Shown piece by piece: positions 4,778 through 21,685 of a stretch of 64,000 nucleotides of DNA. The first letter of the stretch is position 1, and every line of letters begins with the position of its first letter. The DNA is taken from the IMG/VR virus record IMGVR_UViG_3300044623_001092; one strand, 5' to 3'. The notes under the pieces were generated by a model that was not told the origin of the DNA, did not search any database, and saw only the letters and a list, made by a program, of their open reading frames with translations. The position numbers were made by a program, and so were the translations under genes. The stretch comes from a virus.

Positions 4778-4997
4778 CTTTCTTTTCTAATTGTTCAATA
4801 TGATGTTGTAGATACCACAACGCTTTTTTAAGGTCTTGCAATTCTTTATCAGAATCTTTCTTTCCCGCTCTCGATATATACTTAACCGTATTACCTAAAC
4901 TAAATCCTAACTCCCAAGCATCAATAACTTTGATTGCTTCATACACATTCTCTTCACCACCATAATGTGTTGGGTGGTTTACTTGTTCATTACTCAT
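4767..4997 (-). CDS. DUF3310 family protein (T7 gp1.7-like nucleotide kinase family)
   Basis: VNHPTHY...GFSLGNTVKYISRAGKK...QDLKKALWYL signature. Confidence 0.85.
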   Translation of the reverse strand: MSNEQVNHPTHYGGEENVYEAIKVIDAWELGFSLGNTVKYISRAGKKDSDKELQDLKKALWYLQHHIEQLEKKGNQ

Positions 4998-5003
4998 ATT
5001 ATA

Positions 5004-5189
5004 TTATTTGTTTTCTTCAATATATTGTTTAAGGTCTTCCTCAGTAACACCTTCGTTAAACATACGATACACATCGTCAGAAAAAGAATCATTAACAATC
5101 ACCGCATCAGGTTTACCCAAGTAAGTCATAATATTATTTACGTTATTAATAATATTTTCTTTCTTTAAAATTCTTTTATTGAAACTCAT
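5004..5189 (-). CDS. Hypothetical protein
   Basis: 61-aa ORF coupled to the upstream gene by a 1-nt overlap. Confidence 0.65.
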   Translation of the reverse strand: MSFNKRILKKENIINNVNNIMTYLGKPDAVIVNDSFSDDVYRMFNEGVTEEDLKQYIEENK

Positions 5190-5968
5190 TATGATAAAGT
5201 TTTATGAATAATTTTAGTTTCCCTAGTTTGATTGATGTACGACAATATCTTTCTCTTGAATATCGGTAACAATGTTTCCTTTAATGGGAAAATATTACTA
5301 CACTTCACTTCAATAATCGGACATAACTTTTCACCATTCTTCTCGTAAGTTTTAGAAAATGTAGAGATAATTTCCTCAACAGTCAAGTCACCTTTATCAC
5401 CTTCAAAAATTTGTTTTAAGTGAGTTTTAGTTTGGTTCTCCACTTTATAAACTTTTTTGGTTGTGTACTGCCAAATGTATAACACCTCATCATCATTCTG
5501 ATAATAGAAAAACCCCACTTTAGATTTAATATTTGATTTGTTCTTTCTAACCTTAATATCAATTGATTCATAAACAACTGACCACAATGACTTTGCGAAG
5601 TTGAAGTAATCGAATAATTGTGGTTGAGAATTTTTTAATATCTTCTTGTATTCATCAACCTCTTCGGTTGCTAGTACAGGGATATCCTTCACTTTAAGGT
5701 CCGACAACAATAATTCATCATCATTCGTTGTGAATTTCTTTTCCGTGTACAGAATTTTATTCGTATTAATTAATGTTTGAATATTACCCAAGTGTAATGA
5801 TAACTCAATAAACATGGGGTAGATTTTCATCTCTTCAAAATATTTGTTCAACTTTTGGAAATAATCTAATAGTACGTATTGTTTTTGCTCTGCATCTAAA
5901 ATCCCATTGAATAACCAATCGGTATCCATAATGAAATCAAAGTTCTTTTTTGTTTTTTTTGTTGACAT
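5189..5968 (-). CDS. Conserved hypothetical protein resembling a Bacteroidota family
   Basis: W..GILDAEQKQYVLLDY...YP...L..H and C-terminal PLKETLLPIFKR motifs resemble a recalled Bacteroidota hypothetical family. Confidence 0.6.
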   Translation of the reverse strand: MSTKKTKKNFDFIMDTDWLFNGILDAEQKQYVLLDYFQKLNKYFEEMKIYPMFIELSLHLGNIQTLINTNKILYTEKKFTTNDDELLLSDLKVKDIPVLATEEVDEYKKILKNSQPQLFDYFNFAKSLWSVVYESIDIKVRKNKSNIKSKVGFFYYQNDDEVLYIWQYTTKKVYKVENQTKTHLKQIFEGDKGDLTVEEIISTFSKTYEKNGEKLCPIIEVKCSNIFPLKETLLPIFKRKILSYINQTRETKIIHKTLS

Positions 5969-6005
5969 AACATAAATATAATCAAGATTATTGCGTTAAT
6001 GTAGT

Positions 6006-7415
6006 TTATTCAGTTCTCATTATGTAATAAGTTGTATTATCAACATCAACAGTCTCATAACTACCATCATGACTATTCAAATCACCATAATCAGAGTTTC
6101 TCGATAATTCTTCATATATACAATCAGTGTCAACATAATCTCTAATGGTGAATCCCATATTTTTAAGATAATCTAATGGGTCTCTTTTAACCTGATAAAC
6201 CATATCATCAACCTTATCTTGAATCATACTTTCTGAAATTTCTTTTGACTCATTAATTTCCTCAATTTCTTCCTCAGCTTTAGTTTTATTTTCCTCCGCT
6301 TCATCAATTAACTCTTGAAGTTCTTGTTGTTGTTGATTATAACCATCTTCATCATCCGTGTCAAATTCCATTTCTGTTTGTTCATTACTCTTCTCAGAAA
6401 TATATTCATCCAACTCAGTAATATAATCTTCCAATTCTGAAATTCTATGTTGTTGGCTAGATGATAATTCCTTATCATCATCATTAAACCAACTATCAGG
6501 GTCTTCCTCAATTTGATACCTATAATCTTCTTCAGCAACTTCAATAACCGCATCAGCATCAATACAGTTTTCTAATGTATATTCTTGAAGTCCATCCAAC
6601 CCAACGTCATCCACATAATTTTTCCAATATTCTTCAAGAGCATAGTCCATTTCTGTTTGAGTTCCAACACTATATATTCTTAGTCGACTACCTTTCCTTA
6701 ACGGTATAACATTAAAAGTATCAACACCATAATGAGAATGACCATCAGGTACAACAGTGTTATAGATATCGTTATTTCTTTCTTCAAGTTCACCAATTTC
6801 TTCTTCCAACTCACTTAACTTATCATATAATTCACTTGCTTCTTCAGAGTCTTCAGATTCTTGATACTCTTTTTCAATACGAGCATATCTTCTTTTAAGT
6901 TCAACCAAAGTTTCTCTTTCATCATCATCCATACTTTCAATCTCCCCTTCATCAATCAGAAATTGAAATAACGCATTGGCTCTATTAGCTTCATCACTCT
7001 TACCAATTTCCCACTCATTATTCTCACGTCTTTCTTCATTTTGCGCCAACCATTTTGCGTCTTGTTTACGAAGTCGTGCGGTTTCAATTGGTGTCCCACT
7101 ATCCCAAACATGTCCTTTAACATGTACAGGAGATAACTTACTAATTCTAGTATTACTAATATCTAAAGAACCATCAACATATGCCACGTTACCCAATGTT
7201 GAAATTGGACGACCTCTAACATTTAAACTACCCGTTATATATAATGGTTTACCACCAAACTTTTTAATTTTAGTAAACCCAGGACTATTATCGGAAAAAT
7301 CTAATAGTTGAATGTATTCTTCAGGTGTTATACGATAGTATTCATCAGAGTCGTCTTGCTCAACAATTAGGTTAACTAGTCTACGTAATTTACTATGATT
7401 GATATTTTGTTTCAT
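6006..7415 (-). CDS. Highly acidic coiled-coil protein with N-terminal LRR-like (GSLDISNT) repeats
   Basis: ATG 7415 (MKQNIN) preferred over the TTG start at 7448; GSLNVRG/GSLDISNT repeats; D/E-rich coiled segments. Confidence 0.7.
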   Translation of the reverse strand: MKQNINHSKLRRLVNLIVEQDDSDEYYRITPEEYIQLLDFSDNSPGFTKIKKFGGKPLYITGSLNVRGRPISTLGNVAYVDGSLDISNTRISKLSPVHVKGHVWDSGTPIETARLRKQDAKWLAQNEERRENNEWEIGKSDEANRANALFQFLIDEGEIESMDDDERETLVELKRRYARIEKEYQESEDSEEASELYDKLSELEEEIGELEERNNDIYNTVVPDGHSHYGVDTFNVIPLRKGSRLRIYSVGTQTEMDYALEEYWKNYVDDVGLDGLQEYTLENCIDADAVIEVAEEDYRYQIEEDPDSWFNDDDKELSSSQQHRISELEDYITELDEYISEKSNEQTEMEFDTDDEDGYNQQQQELQELIDEAEENKTKAEEEIEEINESKEISESMIQDKVDDMVYQVKRDPLDYLKNMGFTIRDYVDTDCIYEELSRNSDYGDLNSHDGSYETVDVDNTTYYIMRTE

Positions 7416-7528: not shown

Positions 7529-7675
7529 ATGGGATGCGGATGTAAAAACAAAGCAAATCAACCAGCACAACCAACACAACAAAGTGCTTCACCTCAAGGT
7601 CAACCAACTAATAACTCTTCAATTCAAGAGTCAATTAAAAAAGTTGTTGAGAAATACTATACTAAGAAAAAATAA
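7529..7675 (+). CDS. Small MGCGCK-motif protein (48 aa)
   Basis: Manual: MGCGCKNKANQPAQPTQQSASPQGQPTNNSSIQESIKKVVEKYYTKKK; TATTTATA at 7481 upstream and terminator downstream. Confidence 0.75.
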   Translation: MGCGCKNKANQPAQPTQQSASPQGQPTNNSSIQESIKKVVEKYYTKKK

Positions 7676-7696
7676 TTCTTGGTTTCTAGAAAGGTG

Positions 7697-7725
7697 AAAG
7701 GAGGACTATGTGTTCTCCTTTTTTT
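7697..7725 (+). terminator. Intrinsic terminator
   Basis: aaaggaggac-tatgt-gttctcc followed by a T run. Confidence 0.7.
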
Positions 7726-7780
7726 GTTTTAGTATTTAAGGTGTTATTTATTTTAATTATTAATTATCAAAAATAACAAT

Positions 7781-8596
7781 ATGAAATACATTAATTTAAA
7801 ATCAAACAGAGGTCTCGTTAATAAAATGGCCGATTTCATTTTGACTAAACTTACCCTTGAATATGATTCAGTTATTGAAGTGACAGATTGTGGTAAATTT
7901 TTCGTTATAAATGGGATGACAAATTCTAAGGAAGTTTTAGAAATGTCAAAAATCAAAGAACAATTCTTAGAAGACAATAAAGAACTATTAATTGAGTTTG
8001 GTTATGAGAATGTCAACGTAATAGATTTAATCATGTACGACGTTGAATTAGAACAAAAAACCGACTATTGGTTCACTTACTACAAAACTCATCGTCCCTC
8101 GTTCTCTAAAGAACAACAAGAGTTATCAGAACACACCGATTTAAACATTTGGTCAATCACCCAAACCGATACCTTAAACATAGAACTTGATTACTCAGAA
8201 AGAGAAACTTCCAACTTAACTAACTTCACTTATTCCCCCCTAACAACAACATCTGAATTCCCGTATGGTCACAGTTTAAATATGGGTAGACTTCACTACT
8301 ACTATTCAGAATATATCTCCAATCACATCTTCACAACTATAGACGCTAAGAAGATTGATTTTAAAATCTCAACTAAATTAAATAATGACGAAGATTTTGA
8401 TATTGAATTAATATCAGATTCTAAATTGTATTCGAAAGAAGTAATTAAATCTTTGGTATTGGACGTGTTTGACTTTAACTTGGATAACTTCAAGTTTATA
8501 CTATCTAACTACGATATCAGGGAAGACTTAGAATTACCATTTGGACCTAAACCTTGGTTAGTTAAAGACAGAATAGAAGACTTAATAGTATTCTAA
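7781..8596 (+). CDS. Degenerate S-adenosylmethionine synthetase (MetK)-like protein lacking the central domain and catalytic motifs
   Basis: By-eye alignment to recalled MetK N-terminal domain (NKMADFIL/IEVTDCGKFFVINGMT/EFGY) and C-terminal domain (GRLHYYYSEYISNHI/LVLDVFDF/PWLVKDRI); GHPDK and GAGDQG absent. Confidence 0.6.
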   Translation: MKYINLKSNRGLVNKMADFILTKLTLEYDSVIEVTDCGKFFVINGMTNSKEVLEMSKIKEQFLEDNKELLIEFGYENVNVIDLIMYDVELEQKTDYWFTYYKTHRPSFSKEQQELSEHTDLNIWSITQTDTLNIELDYSERETSNLTNFTYSPLTTTSEFPYGHSLNMGRLHYYYSEYISNHIFTTIDAKKIDFKISTKLNNDEDFDIELISDSKLYSKEVIKSLVLDVFDFNLDNFKFILSNYDIREDLELPFGPKPWLVKDRIEDLIVF

Positions 8597-8597
8597 C

Positions 8598-8628
8598 AAA
8601 AAACCCCCAATTAAATGGGGGTTTTTTT
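8598..8628. terminator. Bidirectional intrinsic terminator between convergent genes
   Basis: aaaaaa-ccccca-attaaa-tggggg-ttttttt. Confidence 0.85.
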
Positions 8629-8908
8629 ATTTAAAGTGTTCTTTGATAATATCAACGCCTTCTTCGAGTTCATTAAAGTCTCTACCAGGTGCGAACAATA
8701 ATGAGTTCGGTACTTCATTTGGTGATTCAACAATCATAAATGCTGGTACATAATCATTTTCAGTTATTTCAACAAATAAATCATACTCATCTTTATGAGT
8801 TTCAATGTCTCTTTCATAGAACTCTAATTTGTGTTCTTTAAGTTGACCCTTAAATACATCACAGAAAGGACATCCTTTCATTGTGAAAACAATCAATACT
8901 TTATCCAT
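8627..8908 (-). CDS. Glutaredoxin/thioredoxin-fold protein
   Basis: CPFC active-site motif and VP cis-Pro motif (YVPAF). Confidence 0.8.
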   Translation of the reverse strand: MDKVLIVFTMKGCPFCDVFKGQLKEHKLEFYERDIETHKDEYDLFVEITENDYVPAFMIVESPNEVPNSLLFAPGRDFNELEEGVDIIKEHFK

Positions 8909-9233
8909 TTACCAATTCTTTTGCCATTAACATAATTTCACTCTCTTGGATTACTCCAACCTTAGTATCAACTACTTCACCTTTGTTGAATACTTTAATA
9001 GTCGGTACACTTCTGATTCCTAACGAAACCGCTAAGTCTCTGTTAGCATCAACATCCATCGTGTACATTTTAACACCCGTATTACTTTCATTTATCTGTA
9101 AAGATGTTTTGTCAAAAATAGGTTTCAACATTTTACATGGTCCACACCAAGTTGCCCAAAAGTCAACGATTAGTTTTTCCCCATTTTCAATTTTTTCATT
9201 CAATTCCTTTGCCGTTATTTCCATAGCTTTCAT
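8901..9233 (-). CDS. trxA: Thioredoxin
   Basis: VDFWATWCGPCK, IRSVPT; start may be 9224. Confidence 0.92.
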   Translation of the reverse strand: MKAMEITAKELNEKIENGEKLIVDFWATWCGPCKMLKPIFDKTSLQINESNTGVKMYTMDVDANRDLAVSLGIRSVPTIKVFNKGEVVDTKVGVIQESEIMLMAKELVNG

Positions 9234-9549
9234 TTTGTTTTTTTATTGTGTATAAAGTAAAATCAACAATATCTCGTTTGTCAATTCTTGATAATATAAA
9301 TAGATGATACTCATTATTTTCGTCAACATTATGATAAACATCAATTCCCGTAGGGTCGTATCTCAAATACTCCTCAACCATAATTTGTTTATTCTGATTC
9401 TCATCTGTCATAAACCATATAGTACTTGATTTAGACAATAGTTTAGTCAGAATTGATTTATCCTTTATCTTAATGTAAGATATGCACGGATAAACACCCC
9501 CATTGTATTCTCGGAATAAATCAATTATATGTTGTGGTATCTTTATCAT
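9196..9549 (-). CDS. Hypothetical protein
   Basis: 117-aa ORF, ATGA overlap with upstream gene. Confidence 0.6.
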   Translation of the reverse strand: MIKIPQHIIDLFREYNGGVYPCISYIKIKDKSILTKLLSKSSTIWFMTDENQNKQIMVEEYLRYDPTGIDVYHNVDENNEYHLFILSRIDKRDIVDFTLYTIKKQNESYGNNGKGIE

Positions 9550-11282
9550 AATGGTAAGTCGTCAAAATCATGTTCAGGAAAAAAAGTATAGTTATGTAAC
9601 TCTATTTCAGCTAGTTTATCATCCCATATAATTGTAGAATAATTATCATTGTTGTAAATAATCGCCTCAGAATGTTTACCCAAACCTAACTTATATTCAA
9701 CATCTTTTTCTGGTAATGTGAATAGTTTTTGTTTACATAAATTCTCAACTTTTTCATCCAATATATTTAAAACATCGGACCAAGTTATATCAGGTTGACT
9801 ATTTCGTTTTGCTTTAGTTTGAATCCTTTTAATTCTTAATTCATCTTCAACAACTGATTGTCCAAATTTATTTTTAACTATTGATAATGAGTATTCATTT
9901 GTTAGTCTTTCATCACTATTTAAGTTACCTTTTCTAAGTGACAGGATAAAACAATCAGGTCTATCAATATAAGTTCTAACACAGTTAGTTTGAATTGTTG
10001 ATTCATTATTGTATTCGTCAGTATTTGTCAAAAGTTTTGGATAATAAACTTCACCTTTAACAGATATTGGTTCTTCAATTAGATTAACAAAACTTCTTCC
10101 GTATCGTCTTGTAATAACCCCGTTAGTATAACTTGAAATTAATTTAGACCACTCATCATGTTCATCAATAAACCCATTTAAAGTCTTTGACTTCCATTTA
10201 ACAGGTTGTAATTTTGATAATTTATTTTTAAAACTAACATGGTCAACAATAGTTGTTGAATCAATATTCCCCAAACAAGCCTCAAGATAAATTTTGTACA
10301 TGTTTTTAAGTTCACTTTCAGTAAATTCTGTTTTAACATACCATTCACCAAAATATGTTTGATTTTCGATTATTAGTTTTAATTCATTATCAGGTCTATC
10401 CATAATAAATTTTGTTCCAAACAATTTAACTGCAAAATCATAAGAAGCAATATTAAAATGGTTCACAGTATGTAATACACGTTTTAATTTATCACCCTTC
10501 ATATTTCTAATCAACATAAAAGCGTCCACATACTTGAACCCAACCTTAACATAATCAGGTTTTTTTGGTTGTGGAAATGCTTCAATCAACGTTTTCCAAT
10601 TGTTAGGTAACTTTATCCCACCTGTAACCAATAAGTGTTTGTATAACGAATATTTCACGTCATCATCATCATCGTGTTCTTTAATTTCAGGTATTGAATC
10701 TATAAACTTTTGAATCGGTAGATTAATATCAAACTCAGTCTCTGACATAATTTCCCAAAATGACATGTTTTTAAAAAAATTATTAATTTTTGTTCTAAAA
10801 TTATCAATTGGGTTTTCCCACAATGTCGCTCTTCTTAGGCTTTTTCTACACTTTCTTTTTAAATGGTAATTTATTAATGACCCATGATATAATGAATTTG
10901 TTTTATAATTGTAAGTTATGAAAAATAAACTTGTTGTTTTAATAAAATATGGTTTACCAGGTTTTCTTATTCTATCATAAAGAAACAACTTAATTGAAAC
11001 TTTTGTGTCAGTTCTATCCACGGATATGATTCGTCTTGCGTGTTGGACCCCACACAATGGGTTGGCGTAGTTCTCCTCAAAAGTTTTCTCATCCTTAGAT
11101 GACATTTTACCCTTATCATACTCAAAATGGGGATGTTTCGCAGTACCATTACTCTTAGCGGTATACTCCCAATCCTCACCAAAAAGACTTTCGTTTTTTA
11201 CCGTTGTTGGTTCTAACGAGTTAAAGTTTAAATAGAAGTCCGTATTGTGATTAGTGATGATATATTCGTATATTTTTTCCAT
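9546..11282 (-). CDS. PcfJ-like domain protein
   Basis: C-terminal EYNNESTIQTNCVRTY...ILSLRK...RLTNEY...IQTKAKRN matches the PcfJ E..M.HCV..Y...I.SLR...T.E...Q....N pattern. Confidence 0.7.
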   Translation of the reverse strand: MEKIYEYIITNHNTDFYLNFNSLEPTTVKNESLFGEDWEYTAKSNGTAKHPHFEYDKGKMSSKDEKTFEENYANPLCGVQHARRIISVDRTDTKVSIKLFLYDRIRKPGKPYFIKTTSLFFITYNYKTNSLYHGSLINYHLKRKCRKSLRRATLWENPIDNFRTKINNFFKNMSFWEIMSETEFDINLPIQKFIDSIPEIKEHDDDDDVKYSLYKHLLVTGGIKLPNNWKTLIEAFPQPKKPDYVKVGFKYVDAFMLIRNMKGDKLKRVLHTVNHFNIASYDFAVKLFGTKFIMDRPDNELKLIIENQTYFGEWYVKTEFTESELKNMYKIYLEACLGNIDSTTIVDHVSFKNKLSKLQPVKWKSKTLNGFIDEHDEWSKLISSYTNGVITRRYGRSFVNLIEEPISVKGEVYYPKLLTNTDEYNNESTIQTNCVRTYIDRPDCFILSLRKGNLNSDERLTNEYSLSIVKNKFGQSVVEDELRIKRIQTKAKRNSQPDITWSDVLNILDEKVENLCKQKLFTLPEKDVEYKLGLGKHSEAIIYNNDNYSTIIWDDKLAEIELHNYTFFPEHDFDDLPL

Positions 11283-11326: not shown

Positions 11327-12091
11327 TTAAACCATTTCTTCAGCCAACTCCCAAAGTTTAGTATTAATTCTGTTGGTAGTCAAGATGTCGTTCAAAGTTC
11401 TAAGTTTAGTTTTACGACCACCATTAGATTTGTATTGGATTCCACCTCTCACCCATTTCTCTTGTACTACGTTGAATACTTGCCAAAGTGAATCTCCGTT
11501 GTCAGCATCTCTCAATGGGTTCAAGATTTCTTCGTAATCCAAAGTTGCTGGTACAGAACCTGTTTTCCAACGAACCTCAGCAGATTTTCTAACGAAGTCA
11601 ATCTTCTCGTCAATTGTCAACTCTCTCTCCATCATTCGGTTAACTGAACCTTCGATTAATGGTAGTCTTTTTGAGAAGTCCTCAGTCAAACGTTTAACAT
11701 CGTCTAACTCAAATCCTGTGTGTCTTACTCTGAACGCTTCAGATAATGTAGTAGGAACAGTTAATCCGTTAGCACATACCAATCTGTGTAGACCAGCACT
11801 GATGTTTAACGTCGCCATACCATTGTGTGAGTTTTTCACGATTGCTTCAATCAATGTGTCACCAACTTTAGGTAATTCACCATTACGGAATTTGATTTCG
11901 TGTAATCCGTGAACACCTTTACCTGTTTGTTTCACACTTGCAATATCCCACCCTTCTCTTTGGAAGTTTTCTACGATGTCCACTGTTGGAACGAATGTGT
12001 ATCTGTTAGATACTTTTGGGGATGCTGAAGTTGCGAAGATTGAAGGTGCTACTTCTTTTACTTGGTCTAATGTCATAATCGTGTTTCTCAT
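11327..12091 (-). CDS. DUF932 (YafZ/YubP-like) family protein
   Basis: APSIFA...SNRYTFVPT...NSHNG...GLHRLVCANGL...SLWQVFNVVQE motifs; ATG 12091 lies just downstream of a promoter. Confidence 0.85.
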   Translation of the reverse strand: MRNTIMTLDQVKEVAPSIFATSASPKVSNRYTFVPTVDIVENFQREGWDIASVKQTGKGVHGLHEIKFRNGELPKVGDTLIEAIVKNSHNGMATLNISAGLHRLVCANGLTVPTTLSEAFRVRHTGFELDDVKRLTEDFSKRLPLIEGSVNRMMERELTIDEKIDFVRKSAEVRWKTGSVPATLDYEEILNPLRDADNGDSLWQVFNVVQEKWVRGGIQYKSNGGRKTKLRTLNDILTTNRINTKLWELAEEMV

Positions 12092-12112
12092 ATCTTTTTC
12101 GTTTTGGTTTAA

Positions 12113-12142
12113 CAAATATAGACAAAAAAACGAATCCCCCAA
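12113..12142 (-). promoter_or_regulatory. Bacteroidota-type primary-sigma promoter (-33/-7)
   Basis: Minus strand TTG-N19-TATATTTG upstream of DUF932. Confidence 0.75.
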
Positions 12143-12161
12143 CAATGTGGAGGATTTTTTT

Positions 12162-12469: not shown

Positions 12470-13855
12470 TTACTTAACATAATAAAAACCATTACCTTCT
12501 TCAAGTAACCTATCTTGTAATCTTGGTGGGATTATTAAGTTAGGTACATTTCTAACCGTTAAGAATGCTAATCTAGGTAAGTCCGCAATTTCTTCAGGTA
12601 ATTCTTTTAAACTTTTGTTTTCTGACAATGTCAAGAATTGTAAGTTTTTCATATTACCAATTGATTTAGGTAATGTTTTAACAAGTTTAACTAATAACAA
12701 TGCTTCAACATTAGTGAACTTACCAAGACTTTCAGGTATATCCAATTCAATGTTCTCATTAGATGTGTTACTGATTAACAAGTATTTAATTGTTGTTGGT
12801 AAAGATTCAAACAACTCTTCGAAACCATATAGTGCCACGAATTTACCCGCCGCACTGTTTGGATAATTAATTTCAACTTTTTCTTTATTCGCTGACGTTA
12901 ATCCCGCAGCAAACTCAGATTTGAAGAAGTCTTTCAACTCAGCCATTGGACCATTTAACAGTTTAACCAAATCAACTTGGTGGTCCATTCTATCCATGAA
13001 CGAACTTGTTGGGAAATTGAATTGGAATCTTTCTTGTGGTAACCCTGTTCTTTCACCTACAGAACCTTTGTCATCATTTGCAAGGATAACATATAACGGA
13101 CCTTTACCAGCATAGTAATGGAAGTTATTAGAACTTGGTGTAGATGTACACCAATGAGATTCACCATTTTCATAATCATAGAATCCACCGTACCATTTAG
13201 CAGCCTCAATTTGTGGTTCACCTGTACCTTCAATTTTAATTAAAGTGTAGTTAGGACCTTCAAATAAAATCTCAGCACCTGGATGAGCGTATTTATTTCC
13301 TTTTCTTTCAACTCTTGCCTGAGATTTAACAGTATTCTTATTGATTTTATCTCTAATCTCTTGTGGAAGACTTAAAATAGTACTCAATAATGAATTAGGA
13401 CTTAATTTATTAATATCTCGTTGTTCTTGTGGTAAATATTGTTTTACCTTATCAAATTTACCTAAGATATCCGTGAACTTAAATAAATCCTCAACGAATC
13501 GTCTTTTAAACTCTTTGATAGTTGCTTTATACTCAGGAGAATTTGGGTCAGCATTACCTATCTCTTCCAAATCACTTGTACTTGGTTTAACAAAGTTCTT
13601 TAACAACCAATTCGTGTATTTACCAGGTTGTATTTTATCCATATCAACAATTGAAGCACCATCCTCATCAAAGTTTTCAGGTTTTTTAGTTGTTGGGTCG
13701 GCAAAAATGATTTGTTTTAATGTGTCAAAGTCCATAAACCCTCTCCCTTTAGGGTCTTTAGGATTTGGAGCCACCAATTTATCGTAGAATACTTGGAATC
13801 TTGATTTGTCTTCAGCCTCAAGTAATATTTGTCTTAATACGGAATTAAATTTCAT
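12470..13855 (-). CDS. Protein with HWCTS-motif domain and C-terminal leucine-rich repeats
   Basis: IPESLGKFTNVEALLL / LPKSIGNMKNLQFLTLSEN / LKELPEEIADLPRL LRRs; HWCTS...Y...GPLYVIL core. Confidence 0.75.
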   Translation of the reverse strand: MKFNSVLRQILLEAEDKSRFQVFYDKLVAPNPKDPKGRGFMDFDTLKQIIFADPTTKKPENFDEDGASIVDMDKIQPGKYTNWLLKNFVKPSTSDLEEIGNADPNSPEYKATIKEFKRRFVEDLFKFTDILGKFDKVKQYLPQEQRDINKLSPNSLLSTILSLPQEIRDKINKNTVKSQARVERKGNKYAHPGAEILFEGPNYTLIKIEGTGEPQIEAAKWYGGFYDYENGESHWCTSTPSSNNFHYYAGKGPLYVILANDDKGSVGERTGLPQERFQFNFPTSSFMDRMDHQVDLVKLLNGPMAELKDFFKSEFAAGLTSANKEKVEINYPNSAAGKFVALYGFEELFESLPTTIKYLLISNTSNENIELDIPESLGKFTNVEALLLVKLVKTLPKSIGNMKNLQFLTLSENKSLKELPEEIADLPRLAFLTVRNVPNLIIPPRLQDRLLEEGNGFYYVK

Positions 13856-13900: not shown

Positions 13901-14752
13901 TCAAATTTTTGGATAATTCATAATTAATAACTCTTCACCCATTGTTTGTGCTTTACCTTTCTTAGCAGCTGCCGCCTTAGCAAACTGTTTCATTTCCCAA
14001 ACATATTGGTCTTTTGGAAACCATTCTGATAACAATGGGAAATCATAATAGGACAATGAAAATTTACCTTTCATACTCTTTAATGAGTCAGCCAATCTTT
14101 CGTGGTCTTCTCTGTCAAAATCATGGTTTGAATAGTAATTCTCAGTTTTCCAATACGGTGGGTCCACATAAAAATATGTCGTAGGTGAGTCATATTTAGT
14201 AATAACATCGGCAAAGTCCATATTCTCAACGTGAGTAATAGCCAAGAAATGTTCAACCCAATCAGGTTTAGATAACTTATCTCTGAACGTTAGATACTTT
14301 GACTTGTATTTACCTTTTAAGTCGATATAAGAACTCTTTTCAGGTTTAGAACCTGAGAATACTTGTGTTAATATATAAACGTATTTGGCCGCAGTTACGT
14401 AGTCGCCAGGGTTTACGCTGAAATCTTCAGCAAATATTTCAGCCTGAAAGCTGATAAATAATTCTTTTAAATGAGGTGGTGTTACTTCAACCCCAAATTG
14501 TTGACATTCGATATCGTTAATCGCTTTTAATAGTTCTTCAGGATTCTGAATACATTTGAATAGATTATAATTCAATGGGTTAAAGTCATTGTATACAATT
14601 TTCTTCAGGTTTGGGTATTGTTTTAAATCCATACTAAAAAATGTCCAAAACATCCCGCCAAAAACCTCAACAAATTCCTCAATATCATTAGGAATGTTAG
14701 GTATTATTAATTTTGGTGCTATTCTACTCTTACCGCCAATATATGATAACAT
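13901..14752 (-). CDS. Dam-family (D12 class) N6-adenine DNA methyltransferase, orphan
   Basis: YIGGKSR, EVFGG motif I, YND, YVDPPY motif IV, EELLIMNY. Confidence 0.9.
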   Translation of the reverse strand: MLSYIGGKSRIAPKLIIPNIPNDIEEFVEVFGGMFWTFFSMDLKQYPNLKKIVYNDFNPLNYNLFKCIQNPEELLKAINDIECQQFGVEVTPPHLKELFISFQAEIFAEDFSVNPGDYVTAAKYVYILTQVFSGSKPEKSSYIDLKGKYKSKYLTFRDKLSKPDWVEHFLAITHVENMDFADVITKYDSPTTYFYVDPPYWKTENYYSNHDFDREDHERLADSLKSMKGKFSLSYYDFPLLSEWFPKDQYVWEMKQFAKAAAAKKGKAQTMGEELLIMNYPKI

Positions 14753-16574: not shown

Positions 16575-16730
16575 ATGAATGGAATTCCAAACACAGAATG
16601 TAAAGATTGTCAAAAAGGTATTTTCGACAAACCTTACAAATTAATACTAGTTGTAGTATTTTTCTCAGCAACATCAATTTATGGTTTAGGGCGAATCATT
16701 TACGATATCGTCCATTACCTAAATCACTAA
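16575..16730 (+). CDS. Small CxxC plus single-TM protein (51 aa)
   Basis: Manual: MNGIPNTECKDCQKGIFDKPYKLILVVVFFSATSIYGLGRIIYDIVHYLNH; starts 2 nt after the previous stop. Confidence 0.65.
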   Translation: MNGIPNTECKDCQKGIFDKPYKLILVVVFFSATSIYGLGRIIYDIVHYLNH

Positions 16731-17635
16731 AATTTAGTGAATCTAACGTGTTGTTTGACAAACAAGTCACCATTGTTAAACCCTTTCCCTTTCACTCTTA
16801 ACGGAACCGATGTGTTAAATTCCTTTGGGAGATTAATTGATATCGGTCCATTAGGATGTGAAATCTCCAATGATTCTAATTGTAACTCATCAAGACCAAA
16901 ATATTTGTTGTAAATTAAATCGTCCCCCAATTTTTCCCAATTATCCACAGGTAATACTGTCATCTTCAACACTAAGTTACCGTAAACCCCATTACTGTAA
17001 TCACCATAACCTTGCATCTTTAAGAATTGTGATTCATCAACACCTTTTGGTAATTTGATATTAATCTTTTCCATCTTAGGTTTAGTCGTCTTACCATTAC
17101 AAGAATGACAGACAGTTTTATATACTTGTCCTGAACCTTTACAGTTATTACACGTTTGTCTAACCACTTGACTAAACATACTACCACCAACTTTAACCGC
17201 AATGAATCCTTGTCCTTCACAAATATGACATCTTGATTTATCACCACCATTACCACTACATGTATCACACATCATTTCTCTTGAATAGGTAATTTCTTTG
17301 TCACTAGCATTAAACGATTCTAACACTGTAACATTAACATGTAATATCTTATCGGGAGCCCCTCGTCTAAATCCTTGGTTAAACATTCCAAACATATCAC
17401 CGAATGGGTCAAATCCTGCACCCATATTACCAAACGGGTTATTTTTTTGATTATCGTATTGTTTTCTTTTTACTTCATCACCTATCGTATCATAAGCCTC
17501 AGAAATCTTTTTAAACGTATCTTCAGACCCACCTTTATCTGGATGATGTTTTACGGCTAACTTTCTATACGCCTTCTTTATATCATCTTGTGATGAGGTT
17601 TCTTTAACCCCTAATATGTCGTAAAAATTCTCCAT
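16727..17635 (-). CDS. dnaJ: DnaJ (Hsp40) chaperone
   Basis: J domain with HPD, G/F-rich linker, four CxxCxGxG-type motifs, C-terminal domain. Confidence 0.93.
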   Translation of the reverse strand: MENFYDILGVKETSSQDDIKKAYRKLAVKHHPDKGGSEDTFKKISEAYDTIGDEVKRKQYDNQKNNPFGNMGAGFDPFGDMFGMFNQGFRRGAPDKILHVNVTVLESFNASDKEITYSREMMCDTCSGNGGDKSRCHICEGQGFIAVKVGGSMFSQVVRQTCNNCKGSGQVYKTVCHSCNGKTTKPKMEKINIKLPKGVDESQFLKMQGYGDYSNGVYGNLVLKMTVLPVDNWEKLGDDLIYNKYFGLDELQLESLEISHPNGPISINLPKEFNTSVPLRVKGKGFNNGDLFVKQHVRFTKF

Positions 17636-20011: not shown

Positions 20012-21685
20012 TTATTGAGTTTTTCTATCGTAACCCATTAAATGTTGAATCTTACTAAATTCTTCGTTTAATATTTTACCCTCTTTAGTATTAGACTCTA
20101 ATTTAATGTTAGTTCCACTACCCGCGTTTTCTCCTGTTCCATCAGTTACAGGTTGTTTAGATTTTCTATACGCTAATTCTTTAGCTTTATGATATTTTTT
20201 AGCGTTTAATTTTTTAACTAAATTATCACCTAAATCTGTTTCTTCAGCGTTTGCATATTTAGAGTCATTACCTGTTCTTGAAGACCCTTTGATGTTATCT
20301 TCAACCCATTTTTCATCGTACTCTATTTCATCAGGAACTAAGTCTTCCATACCAGGACTCATGAAGTCATCAATGAAATCTTTACCATTATCAGACATAG
20401 TATATTTCTTAGCCGTCATTTTAGCCAATTGACCGTTTCCTTTTGGGAAATGTTTTGGATTTTCTTCGTAGTCACCTTTAGAACCGTCTTTCAAATACTC
20501 TTTCATTTTTTTAGCAACAGACCTAAGATATTCTTCATTTTCTTTACCATCCTTTTTATGAATTTCTTCGTATTTAGATAATCCTTTAGGTTTACCAAAA
20601 CTTTTTAATTTTTGTTCTTCTTTAACGATATTCTCAATTAATTCTATCATTTCTGACTCAGTTAATTTAACAGATTCTTTAGATGACTTTTTATTTCGTA
20701 ACATTTTGAAATCTTCAGAATCAATTTTACCATTTTTGTTTTTATCAATTTTTGATTGACCACCTTTTAATGATTCTTTAGTTTCAGTTTTTTTACCTCT
20801 CAACATTTTGAAGTCTTCTGAATCAATCTTACCATTTTTGTTTTTATCAATATTTCTTTGTCTACCTGATAATCTTTCGTTCATAATACCTTTACAGAAT
20901 TTTTGAGTTCTTTCATGGTTAGGTCCGAAAAGTTTTCTATGTGCATCACATGCCTCTTTATCAGGTTCTTTAGCAAGGTAATCAGTTTCCTCATCACCTT
21001 CATCATCTAACAATCCTTCATCCATATATGATTTACCACATTCCATACACTCACCTTCATACATACCACCACCACATTCGCACATCTGAGAATCATCTTC
21101 TGACATCAAATCATCTAAATTAATATCGTCAACATCAAAATCATCATCATCATCATCATCATCATTACCACGGCCAAAACGCTTATCTAATAAATCACGA
21201 AAATCGCCAAATTTATTTTTAGCGTATTTTTCAGGTGTAATAGAATCGTCTCTCAAATTATTCATATTAATTTGAGTTCCTTTTGGTACTCGTTTGAATT
21301 CTTTACTTGTGAAGTCTTTACCCCCTCTTGCTCTTTGGATATATGGGTCGTCAAAACCTTCTTCTAATTCATTATCAAAATCATCGTCTTCATATTCTCG
21401 ACTATGTTTTCTATGTGGACGTTCGTCAACACCATCTTCAAAATCAGAATCATCTTCCATGTCATCAGAATTAATGTACTCATCCATCATCGCCTCAATT
21501 TCTTCAGGTGTCATTGTAGTAAAGTTTTTCTTACCAAATTTTGGATGACCATCATCCATACCACCAAGTTTTTCATTAACATTAGTTTTTAAACGTGTAA
21601 CTAAATCATCAGCTCTTTCTTCCAATGTTTCATTTAACATTTTTTTCACCATACTGTTAATGTATCTATCGTTAACTTTTTTCAT
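20012..21685 (-). CDS. Charged protein with two EF-hand-like repeats and a CxC..CxxC motif; possible prohead core/internal protein
   Basis: IDKNKNGKIDSEDFKMLR twice, CECGG...CMECG, KLTESEMIELIENIVKEE, poly-Asp tract. Confidence 0.7.
   Translation of the reverse strand: MKKVNDRYINSMVKKMLNETLEERADDLVTRLKTNVNEKLGGMDDGHPKFGKKNFTTMTPEEIEAMMDEYINSDDMEDDSDFEDGVDERPHRKHSREYEDDDFDNELEEGFDDPYIQRARGGKDFTSKEFKRVPKGTQINMNNLRDDSITPEKYAKNKFGDFRDLLDKRFGRGNDDDDDDDDFDVDDINLDDLMSEDDSQMCECGGGMYEGECMECGKSYMDEGLLDDEGDEETDYLAKEPDKEACDAHRKLFGPNHERTQKFCKGIMNERLSGRQRNIDKNKNGKIDSEDFKMLRGKKTETKESLKGGQSKIDKNKNGKIDSEDFKMLRNKKSSKESVKLTESEMIELIENIVKEEQKLKSFGKPKGLSKYEEIHKKDGKENEEYLRSVAKKMKEYLKDGSKGDYEENPKHFPKGNGQLAKMTAKKYTMSDNGKDFIDDFMSPGMEDLVPDEIEYDEKWVEDNIKGSSRTGNDSKYANAEETDLGDNLVKKLNAKKYHKAKELAYRKSKQPVTDGTGENAGSGTNIKLESNTKEGKILNEEFSKIQHLMGYDRKTQ

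Follow-up and report, generated by a model that had tools for sequence, protein, structure and literature searches.

The window, a stretch of 64,000 nucleotides that represents a fragment of an uncultured low-G+C jumbo phage from lake water, carries at positions 7781-8596 (+) an open reading frame with an ATG start, coding for 271 amino acids plus the stop codon. The product has the predicted fold of SAM synthetases (MAT, MetK) and is, judged by its sequence, non-catalytic. The gene is situated on a short plus-strand island with blocks of minus-strand genes on either side. A 48-aa ORF (7529-7675, +), traced by tblastn synteny in 14 loci, lies upstream and consists of MGCGCKNK..., a Q/P-rich linker and ...IQESIKKVVEKYY; a terminator scan placed a terminator-like hairpin after it (7696-7722). 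Right behind this terminator of the small gene, about 50 nt 5' of the MAT-like start codon, a motif with the core [CG]TATTTA[AG] was found (7729-7742, +). Its placement upstream of the MAT-like gene was identical in eight of eight related loci compared (L001-L012 range and L105); it is a candidate phage promoter element. The motif is too frequent in the A+T-rich window for the definition of a regulon or a promoter class, and a sigma-70 scan of the window stayed near background. On the other side of the gene, a G+C-rich hairpin (8598-8627; -17 kcal/mol, z -2.0) separates the MAT-like gene from a convergent glutaredoxin-like gene. The stem has been retained through compensatory changes in most of the related phages compared (L001, L002, L004, L005, L008 and L010); it is likely a bidirectional terminator, and the first-pass annotation of the locus had rightly credited the gene with a terminator of its own. 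In metatranscriptome libraries from three studies, parts of the gene were overlapped by short contigs (8224-8576 and 7733-7940); with patchy coverage and a possible carry-over of DNA, this hints only weakly at transcription. The related phages originate from lake metagenomes of many studies.

The gene order around the MAT-like gene was conserved in 14 of 14 syntenic loci: an acidic 480-aa protein (-), the small MGCGCK protein (+), the MAT-like protein (+), glutaredoxin (-) and thioredoxin (-), followed by two unknowns, a DUF932 protein, a leucine-rich-repeat protein and a D12 N6-adenine DNA methyltransferase. In the window, the glutaredoxin-like gene (8627-8908, -) stands in tandem with the thioredoxin gene (8901-9233, -; PHROG 22), and this pair is among the most conserved neighbours, with identities of up to 91 %. 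The DUF932 gene is located at 11327-12145 (-; E 8.8e-26), the gene for a protein with a C-terminal leucine-rich-repeat stretch, scoring below the Pfam cut-off, at 12470-13855 (-), and the D12-class methyltransferase gene (PF02086, E 1.5e-19) at 13901-14752 (-). Further along are a full-length phage-encoded DnaJ (16727-17635, -) with J, CXXCXGXG and C-terminal domains and a 557-aa protein (20012-21685, -) with an EF-hand/dockerin-like calcium-binding pair at about residues 277-330. The MGCGCKNK proteins, 47-60 aa in length, combine an invariant N-terminus and a variable Gln/Pro-rich linker with a conserved C-terminus, IQES[IV][KR]K.VEKYY; they match no family, and their gene is always the first on the plus-strand island that holds the MAT-like gene.

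The content of this island varies between relatives. In L105, two additional paralogous ORFs of 371 aa (4848-5963, +) and 324 aa (5967-6941, +) are inserted between the MGCGCK and the MAT-like gene. L105 also codes for a 151-aa zinc-ribbon-like protein (9476-9931, -) with a sub-threshold match to Lar, a restriction alleviation family (PF14354; E 9e-4, 19.9 bits against a cut-off of 28.6). A convergent ORF of 174 aa directly downstream of the MAT-like gene was present in L012 (8822-9346, -), L014 and L117 and is absent from the window. Pfam and PHROG returned no match for the 371-, 324- and 174-aa variable neighbours. A single metagenome scan for distant members of the MAT-like family yielded one contig of 1.5 kb, L119, which is the sole distant locus available for comparison. 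Viral contigs gave no match to P0060, P0098, P0303 and P0321, likewise distant members. The MAT-like protein of L119 is 25-29 % identical to the others. Its gene is preceded by a homolog of the 371-aa protein (L119:23-391, +; 33 % identity over about 130 aa) and flanked on the other side by a homolog of the 174-aa ORF (L119:1242-1570, -; 53 % identity). The 371-aa protein may be a recurring partner of the MAT-like gene. With the variable plus-strand island and the Dam-type methylase and DUF932 protein nearby, the surroundings of the gene resemble those in which genes for host takeover or anti-restriction are typically located.

Searches with the 271-aa protein alone were uninformative: Pfam assigned no family even at E<=10, a search of the PDB sequences and NCBIfam gave no match, PHROG offered solely a negligible match to phrog_7643 (E 0.096, function unknown), and the Protein Atlas matches all scored below 0.9. 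When 1.84 billion representatives were searched exhaustively with phmmer, 214 relatives passed E<=1e-3 and 39 of these also E<=1e-30, nearly all with a length of 220-280 aa; these family representatives are clusters at 50 % identity. A word-indexed search detected 292 clusters (90 % identity), all of them unnamed or annotated as 'hypothetical protein', none with a Pfam domain and some located on contigs as long as 505 kb. The median length of the family is 254 aa versus 386 aa for MetK, and its members are about 115 residues shorter. No relative was present in the deposited records of cultured phages, searched by megablast and by tblastn (50,697 records for the latter), or in the bacterial genome contigs of 185,579 species represented by one genome each. 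Thus the MAT-like family is real and large, and the present evidence places it in uncultured phages only. Longer, possibly fused family proteins were not found, an observation of little weight.

The affiliation to the SAM synthetases was established with an alignment of 84 family members, hereafter A1. Sub-threshold matches to Pfam S-AdoMet_synt_C (PF02773) occurred in 12 of the 84 members (best E 4.3e-5), and no other family recurred. In a six-frame search, the PF02773 HMM picked out the MAT-like gene in three related phage records with 15.8-18.2 bits, below the cut-off of 25, while PF00438 had no match in the related phage records; none of the family tests reached the gathering scores of S-AdoMet_synt_N, M or C. 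The sole match of the A1 profile among the PDB sequences was a MAT. Comparison by hhalign in local mode with an alignment of 83 MetK sequences (E. coli, 78 genome loci and four phage metK genes) aligned residues 7-268 with MetK 14-377 at E 5.8e-4, colinear over the whole chain. The first-pass annotation had read the protein as a shortened SAM synthetase homolog from six blocks aligned by eye. Five of these were reproduced by hhalign, namely LVNKMADFIL~IADQISDAVL, IEVTDC..GMT~CETYV..GEI, GRLHYYY..~DRSAAYA.., LVLDVFDF~LVREFFDL and PWLVKD~PWEKTD; the sixth, EFGY~EIGY, was placed elsewhere.

Structure prediction led to the same superfamily. The AlphaFold2 model of the 271-aa protein, calculated with A1, had a pLDDT of 96 and a pTM of 0.92. 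The top matches of a Foldseek search with this model against the PDB were all MAT (best E 5e-12; 161 matches at E<=1e-3). VIA-align superimposed 263 of the 271 residues on MAT chains over the full MAT chain length with a Z of 17.7 and an rmsd of 4.5 A. A relative of only 228 aa, from L105, was modelled with a pLDDT of 87.7, and a search independent of Foldseek among 48,161 representative chains gave three with Z above 5, all MATs: two bacterial MATs (Z 15.8 and 14.2) and an archaeal MAT (8.8), the next best chain scoring 3.8. The resemblance to MetK is far beyond chance, as four independent lines (Pfam, profile against PDB, profile against profile, and structure) agree. At the level of the modelled fold, the 271-aa protein belongs to the MAT/MetK superfamily, with a third lobe, the middle one, reduced. 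The homology claimed at first reading was thereby substantiated; of the S-AdoMet_synt profiles proposed at that time as a check, PF02773 responded weakly below threshold and PF00438 not at all.

The three lobes of the MAT fold differ in their preservation. The first lobe (7781-8083, +) aligns with MetK residues 14 to about 127 and is complete in the AlphaFold2 model, with a helix at residues 9-22, strands at 30-36 and 40-47, helices at 55-72 and a strand at 79-85. It carries K-S-N-R-G at the position of GHPDK, and its residues N14 and G45 show no or almost no variation in the family. Also complete in the model is the C-terminal lobe, residues 158-271 (8252-8593, +), which was delimited by hhalign, the sub-threshold PF02773 matches and conservation. 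It comprises a helix at residues 166-187, strands at 191-200 and 206-212, a helix at 219-229 and C-terminal helices; R170, Y174, D231 and P-W correspond to the MetK elements DRS, AAY, FDL and PW. Between the two, residues 102-157 (8084-8251, +) represent a shrunken, indel-rich remnant of the sequence-central lobe, the region of Pfam S-AdoMet_synt_M. In the model this lobe is reduced to about 55 residues with a helix at 110-118 and short strands, and across the family its columns have gap fractions of 0.3-0.7. In the 228-aa relatives the central lobe is almost wholly absent, yet the model matches MATs only. The earlier statement that the central domain is missing was therefore too strong for the 271-aa protein and fits only the 228-aa relatives, where this domain is nearly lost.

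All catalytic signatures of the SAM synthetases were lost, as had been noted before for GHPDK, GAGDQG and GGGAFSGKD in this one protein. GHPD, GDQG, FSGKD, TGRK and DTYGG occurred in 0 of 84 family members versus 82-83 of 83 true MetKs, the phage-encoded ones included. GHPD(K), with the catalytic His14, Asp16 and Lys17, is present in all 83 MetKs and absent from all 84 members, its hhalign counterpart being the K-S-N-R-G mentioned above. Equally absent were GAGDQG with Asp118 (82-83 of 83 MetKs) and the GDxGLTGRK segment with Asp238, Arg244 and Lys245 together with DTYGG (82-83 of 83); this segment is deleted in the hhalign alignment. Of the triphosphate P-loop GGGAFSGKD, with Lys265, Lys269 and Asp271, the core FSGKD was found in no member versus 82 of 83 MetKs. 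A shorter [YH]-G-[YH]-S takes the position of the P-loop in the family, with about seven residues cut. Glu55 of MetK is aligned with Met46 of the 271-aa protein. According to a survey, GHPD with the catalytic His14 is retained by all known SAM synthetases (PMC1282579), and the archaeal MATs also retain GHPD and the substrate residues (PMC1282579). With every catalytic signature lost and one lobe shrunken or deleted, no SAM synthesis by MAT chemistry is to be expected. On its motifs, we classify the 271-aa protein as a predicted non-catalytic MAT-fold protein, not as an enzymatic MAT.

The gene is under selection. Among homolog pairs without saturation, dN/dS ranged from 0.057 to 0.153, which indicates purifying selection. 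A MAT-like gene was present in every related contig that spans the site, as a single copy and at a fixed position, and the reading frame was intact in all homologs. Comparison of the related loci showed a conserved start (M-[KR]-Y-I-N) along with a conserved position and upstream motif; the downstream hairpin was conserved in most of them. Identities of the MAT-like protein between relatives were 44-73 %, about the median of the neighbour genes. The ORF at 7781-8596 is a working, selected gene. The argument of the first-pass annotation against a decaying pseudogene withstood its own proposed check, dN/dS among the phage homologs. Purifying selection, the fixed position and the conserved terminator therefore speak for a non-catalytic protein of MAT fold that is neither a pseudogene nor a working MAT.

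The residues under strongest conservation are not those of the MetK active site. G45 is invariant across the family; N14, F40, Y86, S158, P161, G163, S224 and D228 are conserved in at least 90 % of the members, and D18, T47, D82, S165, R170, Y174/Y175, F230-D-F and P-W-L are well conserved too. Many of the conserved positions coincide with structural positions of MetK: ADQ/SDA of helix 1, GGE, DRS, AAY, FDL and PW. Helix-1 N/D and G45~G55 also count among the shared fold-determining positions. A loop S-x-F-P-x-G-[YH]-S is specific for the family and occupies the former position of the P-loop GGGAFSGKD; within it, F160 is aligned with the adenine-stacking Phe230 of MetK in a stretch of low alignment confidence. 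Overall, the conserved residues are mostly fold-determining or part of the family-specific loop, and there are no recognisable interface or active-site residues of MetK.

A possible role of such a protein is suggested by the architecture of the enzyme it resembles. MAT subunits associate through the flat faces of their beta-sheets, and both subunits contribute residues to each active site. SAM is bound between the sheets of the MAT dimer by residues from both subunits (PMC1282579). A precedent for an attack on this enzyme is the SAMase of phage T3, a SAM-cleaving lyase which also binds and inactivates MetK and so enables the escape from type I R-M and BREX (PMC8406200; 10.1101/2023.02.27.530186). 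Because of the dimer architecture and the T3 precedent, we propose that the 271-aa protein may act by binding, as a look-alike of MetK: the dead copy would pair with a subunit of the host MetK to form mixed dimers with incomplete active sites, and the SAM supply would change during infection. The simplest outcome would be a lower SAM level and a weakening of SAM-dependent defences, e.g., type I R-M and BREX. The effect could also be in the opposite direction, since dead paralogs can activate their partner, as in the AdoMetDC prozyme. This is the single most likely mechanism, with a rough probability of 0.35, and a rebuilt ligand pocket, discussed below, comes nearly equal. The figure is low for three reasons. 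Mimicry of the MetK sheet face is not visible; the gene is a constant of the lineage, unlike many anti-defence genes of sporadic occurrence; and the phage's own Dam-type methylase needs SAM. A D12 methyltransferase of this SAM-dependent type was encoded within a few kb of the MAT-like gene in the window and in five of five related phage records, therefore the phage itself uses SAM, and a depletion of SAM is not an obvious aim. A canonical MetK was not seen in the related phage records, which are 21-64 % complete.

The family could alternatively form homo-oligomers of MAT fold in which the former active site has been rebuilt into a new pocket, acting as a sponge or sensor for a ligand or catalysing a different reaction, with no need for contact to the host MetK. 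SAM, SAH, MTA or another adenosyl or anionic compound are candidate ligands. We regard this as a tentative explanation that draws on the distribution of conserved residues: those conserved most strongly are small, polar, glycine or proline residues in loops that lead into the initial helix of the respective lobe (S8/N14, N102-S-x-R-P, S158-x-F-P-x-G-[YH]-S and R170), and the equivalent loops in MAT, GHPDK and the P-loop, line the substrate site (hhalign; PMC1282579). The alignment of F160 with the adenine-stacking Phe230 would fit such a pocket, however the residue-level alignment is unreliable there. All known residues for the binding of ATP, Mg, K and methionine are gone, the P-loop is about seven residues shorter, and the 228-aa relatives can do without one of the three lobes around the MAT site; on the other hand, strong purifying selection and lineage-wide constancy suit a routine phage function, and the neighbours include genes for nucleotide and redox functions as well as a methylase that uses SAM. 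Less probable, and in our view rather unlikely, is a use of the MAT fold as an inert scaffold that has nothing to do with SAM, for instance as an assembly factor, as a component of the particle (structural or injected) or for the binding of some other protein of host or phage. The largely fold-determining nature of the conserved positions, the location of the gene between tail-fibre and early-type genes, its constancy in the lineage and the lack of a functional hint from fused or longer forms are compatible with a scaffold, but no structural PHROG family was matched, the gene has its own strand and terminator apart from the structural operons, and a pure scaffold would not usually keep polar loop residues almost invariant.

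The two remaining explanations have a very small share. A strongly divergent, still active SAM synthetase might be considered for the MAT fold and because true metK genes do occur in phages (138 phage records); the absence of the MAT signatures from all 84 members, the deleted P-loop and Asp238/Lys245 segment and the retention of GHPD and substrate residues even in archaeal MATs effectively exclude an active MAT. A functionless remnant of a phage metK in decay would account for the shorter length and the vanished catalytic motifs and is the least probable of all, as it is contradicted by the selection and conservation data: intact frames in all homologs (214 clusters), dN/dS values of 0.06-0.15, the conserved start, position and terminator and a confidently predicted fold.

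Several known systems are comparable in part. The bacterial and eukaryotic MATs (MetK; EC 2.5.1.6; PF00438/PF02772/PF02773) share with the phage family the colinear alignment of the whole chain and the fold-determining positions, whereas the family is devoid of GHPDK, GAGDQG, GDxGLTGRK and GGGAFSGKD, has one lobe reduced or lost and is limited to contigs of uncultured phages. Full-length metK genes of phages, e.g., in the Javan-series prophages of Streptococcus and in Staphylococcus phage UPMK_1, are likewise phage-borne members of the MAT superfamily; their products of 345-400 aa have 46-63 % identity to the E. coli MetK and all catalytic motifs, which the MAT-like family lacks. To the SAM lyase of T3 a functional analogy is possible, in that a phage protein may be aimed at the SAM supply of the host. 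A kinship to this lyase was not detected: the AlphaFold2 model matched the MetK chain in PDB 8bb1, not the lyase, and the MAT fold accounts for the complete 271-aa chain. The trypanosomatid AdoMetDC prozyme may offer a parallel in concept, as a catalytically dead paralog of an oligomeric SAM-metabolism enzyme that exerts its effect in hetero-oligomers. The prozyme, however, stimulates its partner, comes from the same organism as this partner and differs in fold (PMC6221367), while the partner of the MAT-like protein, if there is any, would be a host enzyme.

What is new here is a phage branch of the MAT superfamily that is miniaturised and, judged by its motifs, non-catalytic. Full-text searches of the literature yielded no description of a shortened, motif-less phage family of MAT fold, and according to a published survey the MATs stand alone in evolution as a fold family, the known members all carrying the GHPD signature (PMC1282579). 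In this large, selected, phage-only branch, the fold has been retained and the chemistry discarded. As a generalisation of the proposed pairing with host MetK, widespread 'mini-MetK' pseudoenzymes of phages may form mixed dimers with the host enzyme and switch SAM production down, or up; we consider this conceivable, with the odds against it. If true, they would represent a new route of enzyme mimicry, controlling the cofactor of type I/III R-M, of BREX and of the phage's own methylase, and the first non-catalytic branch of a fold so far known only in SAM synthetases. More generally, an action on host MetK or on SAM would add a new kind of phage tool, directed at a cofactor on which restriction, BREX and methylation all rely; in the case of binding to another ligand or partner, the fold of a universal housekeeping enzyme would have been miniaturised and re-used. 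Either way, hundreds of 'hypothetical proteins' obtain a name and a testable hypothesis. Among them is UniProt A0A6J5L9B3 from an uncultured Caudovirales phage, the only viral predicted structure (BFVD model) that matched in Foldseek (E 3.5e-11, 22 % identity): with 208 aa, this unannotated protein is evidently a short member of the MAT-like family.
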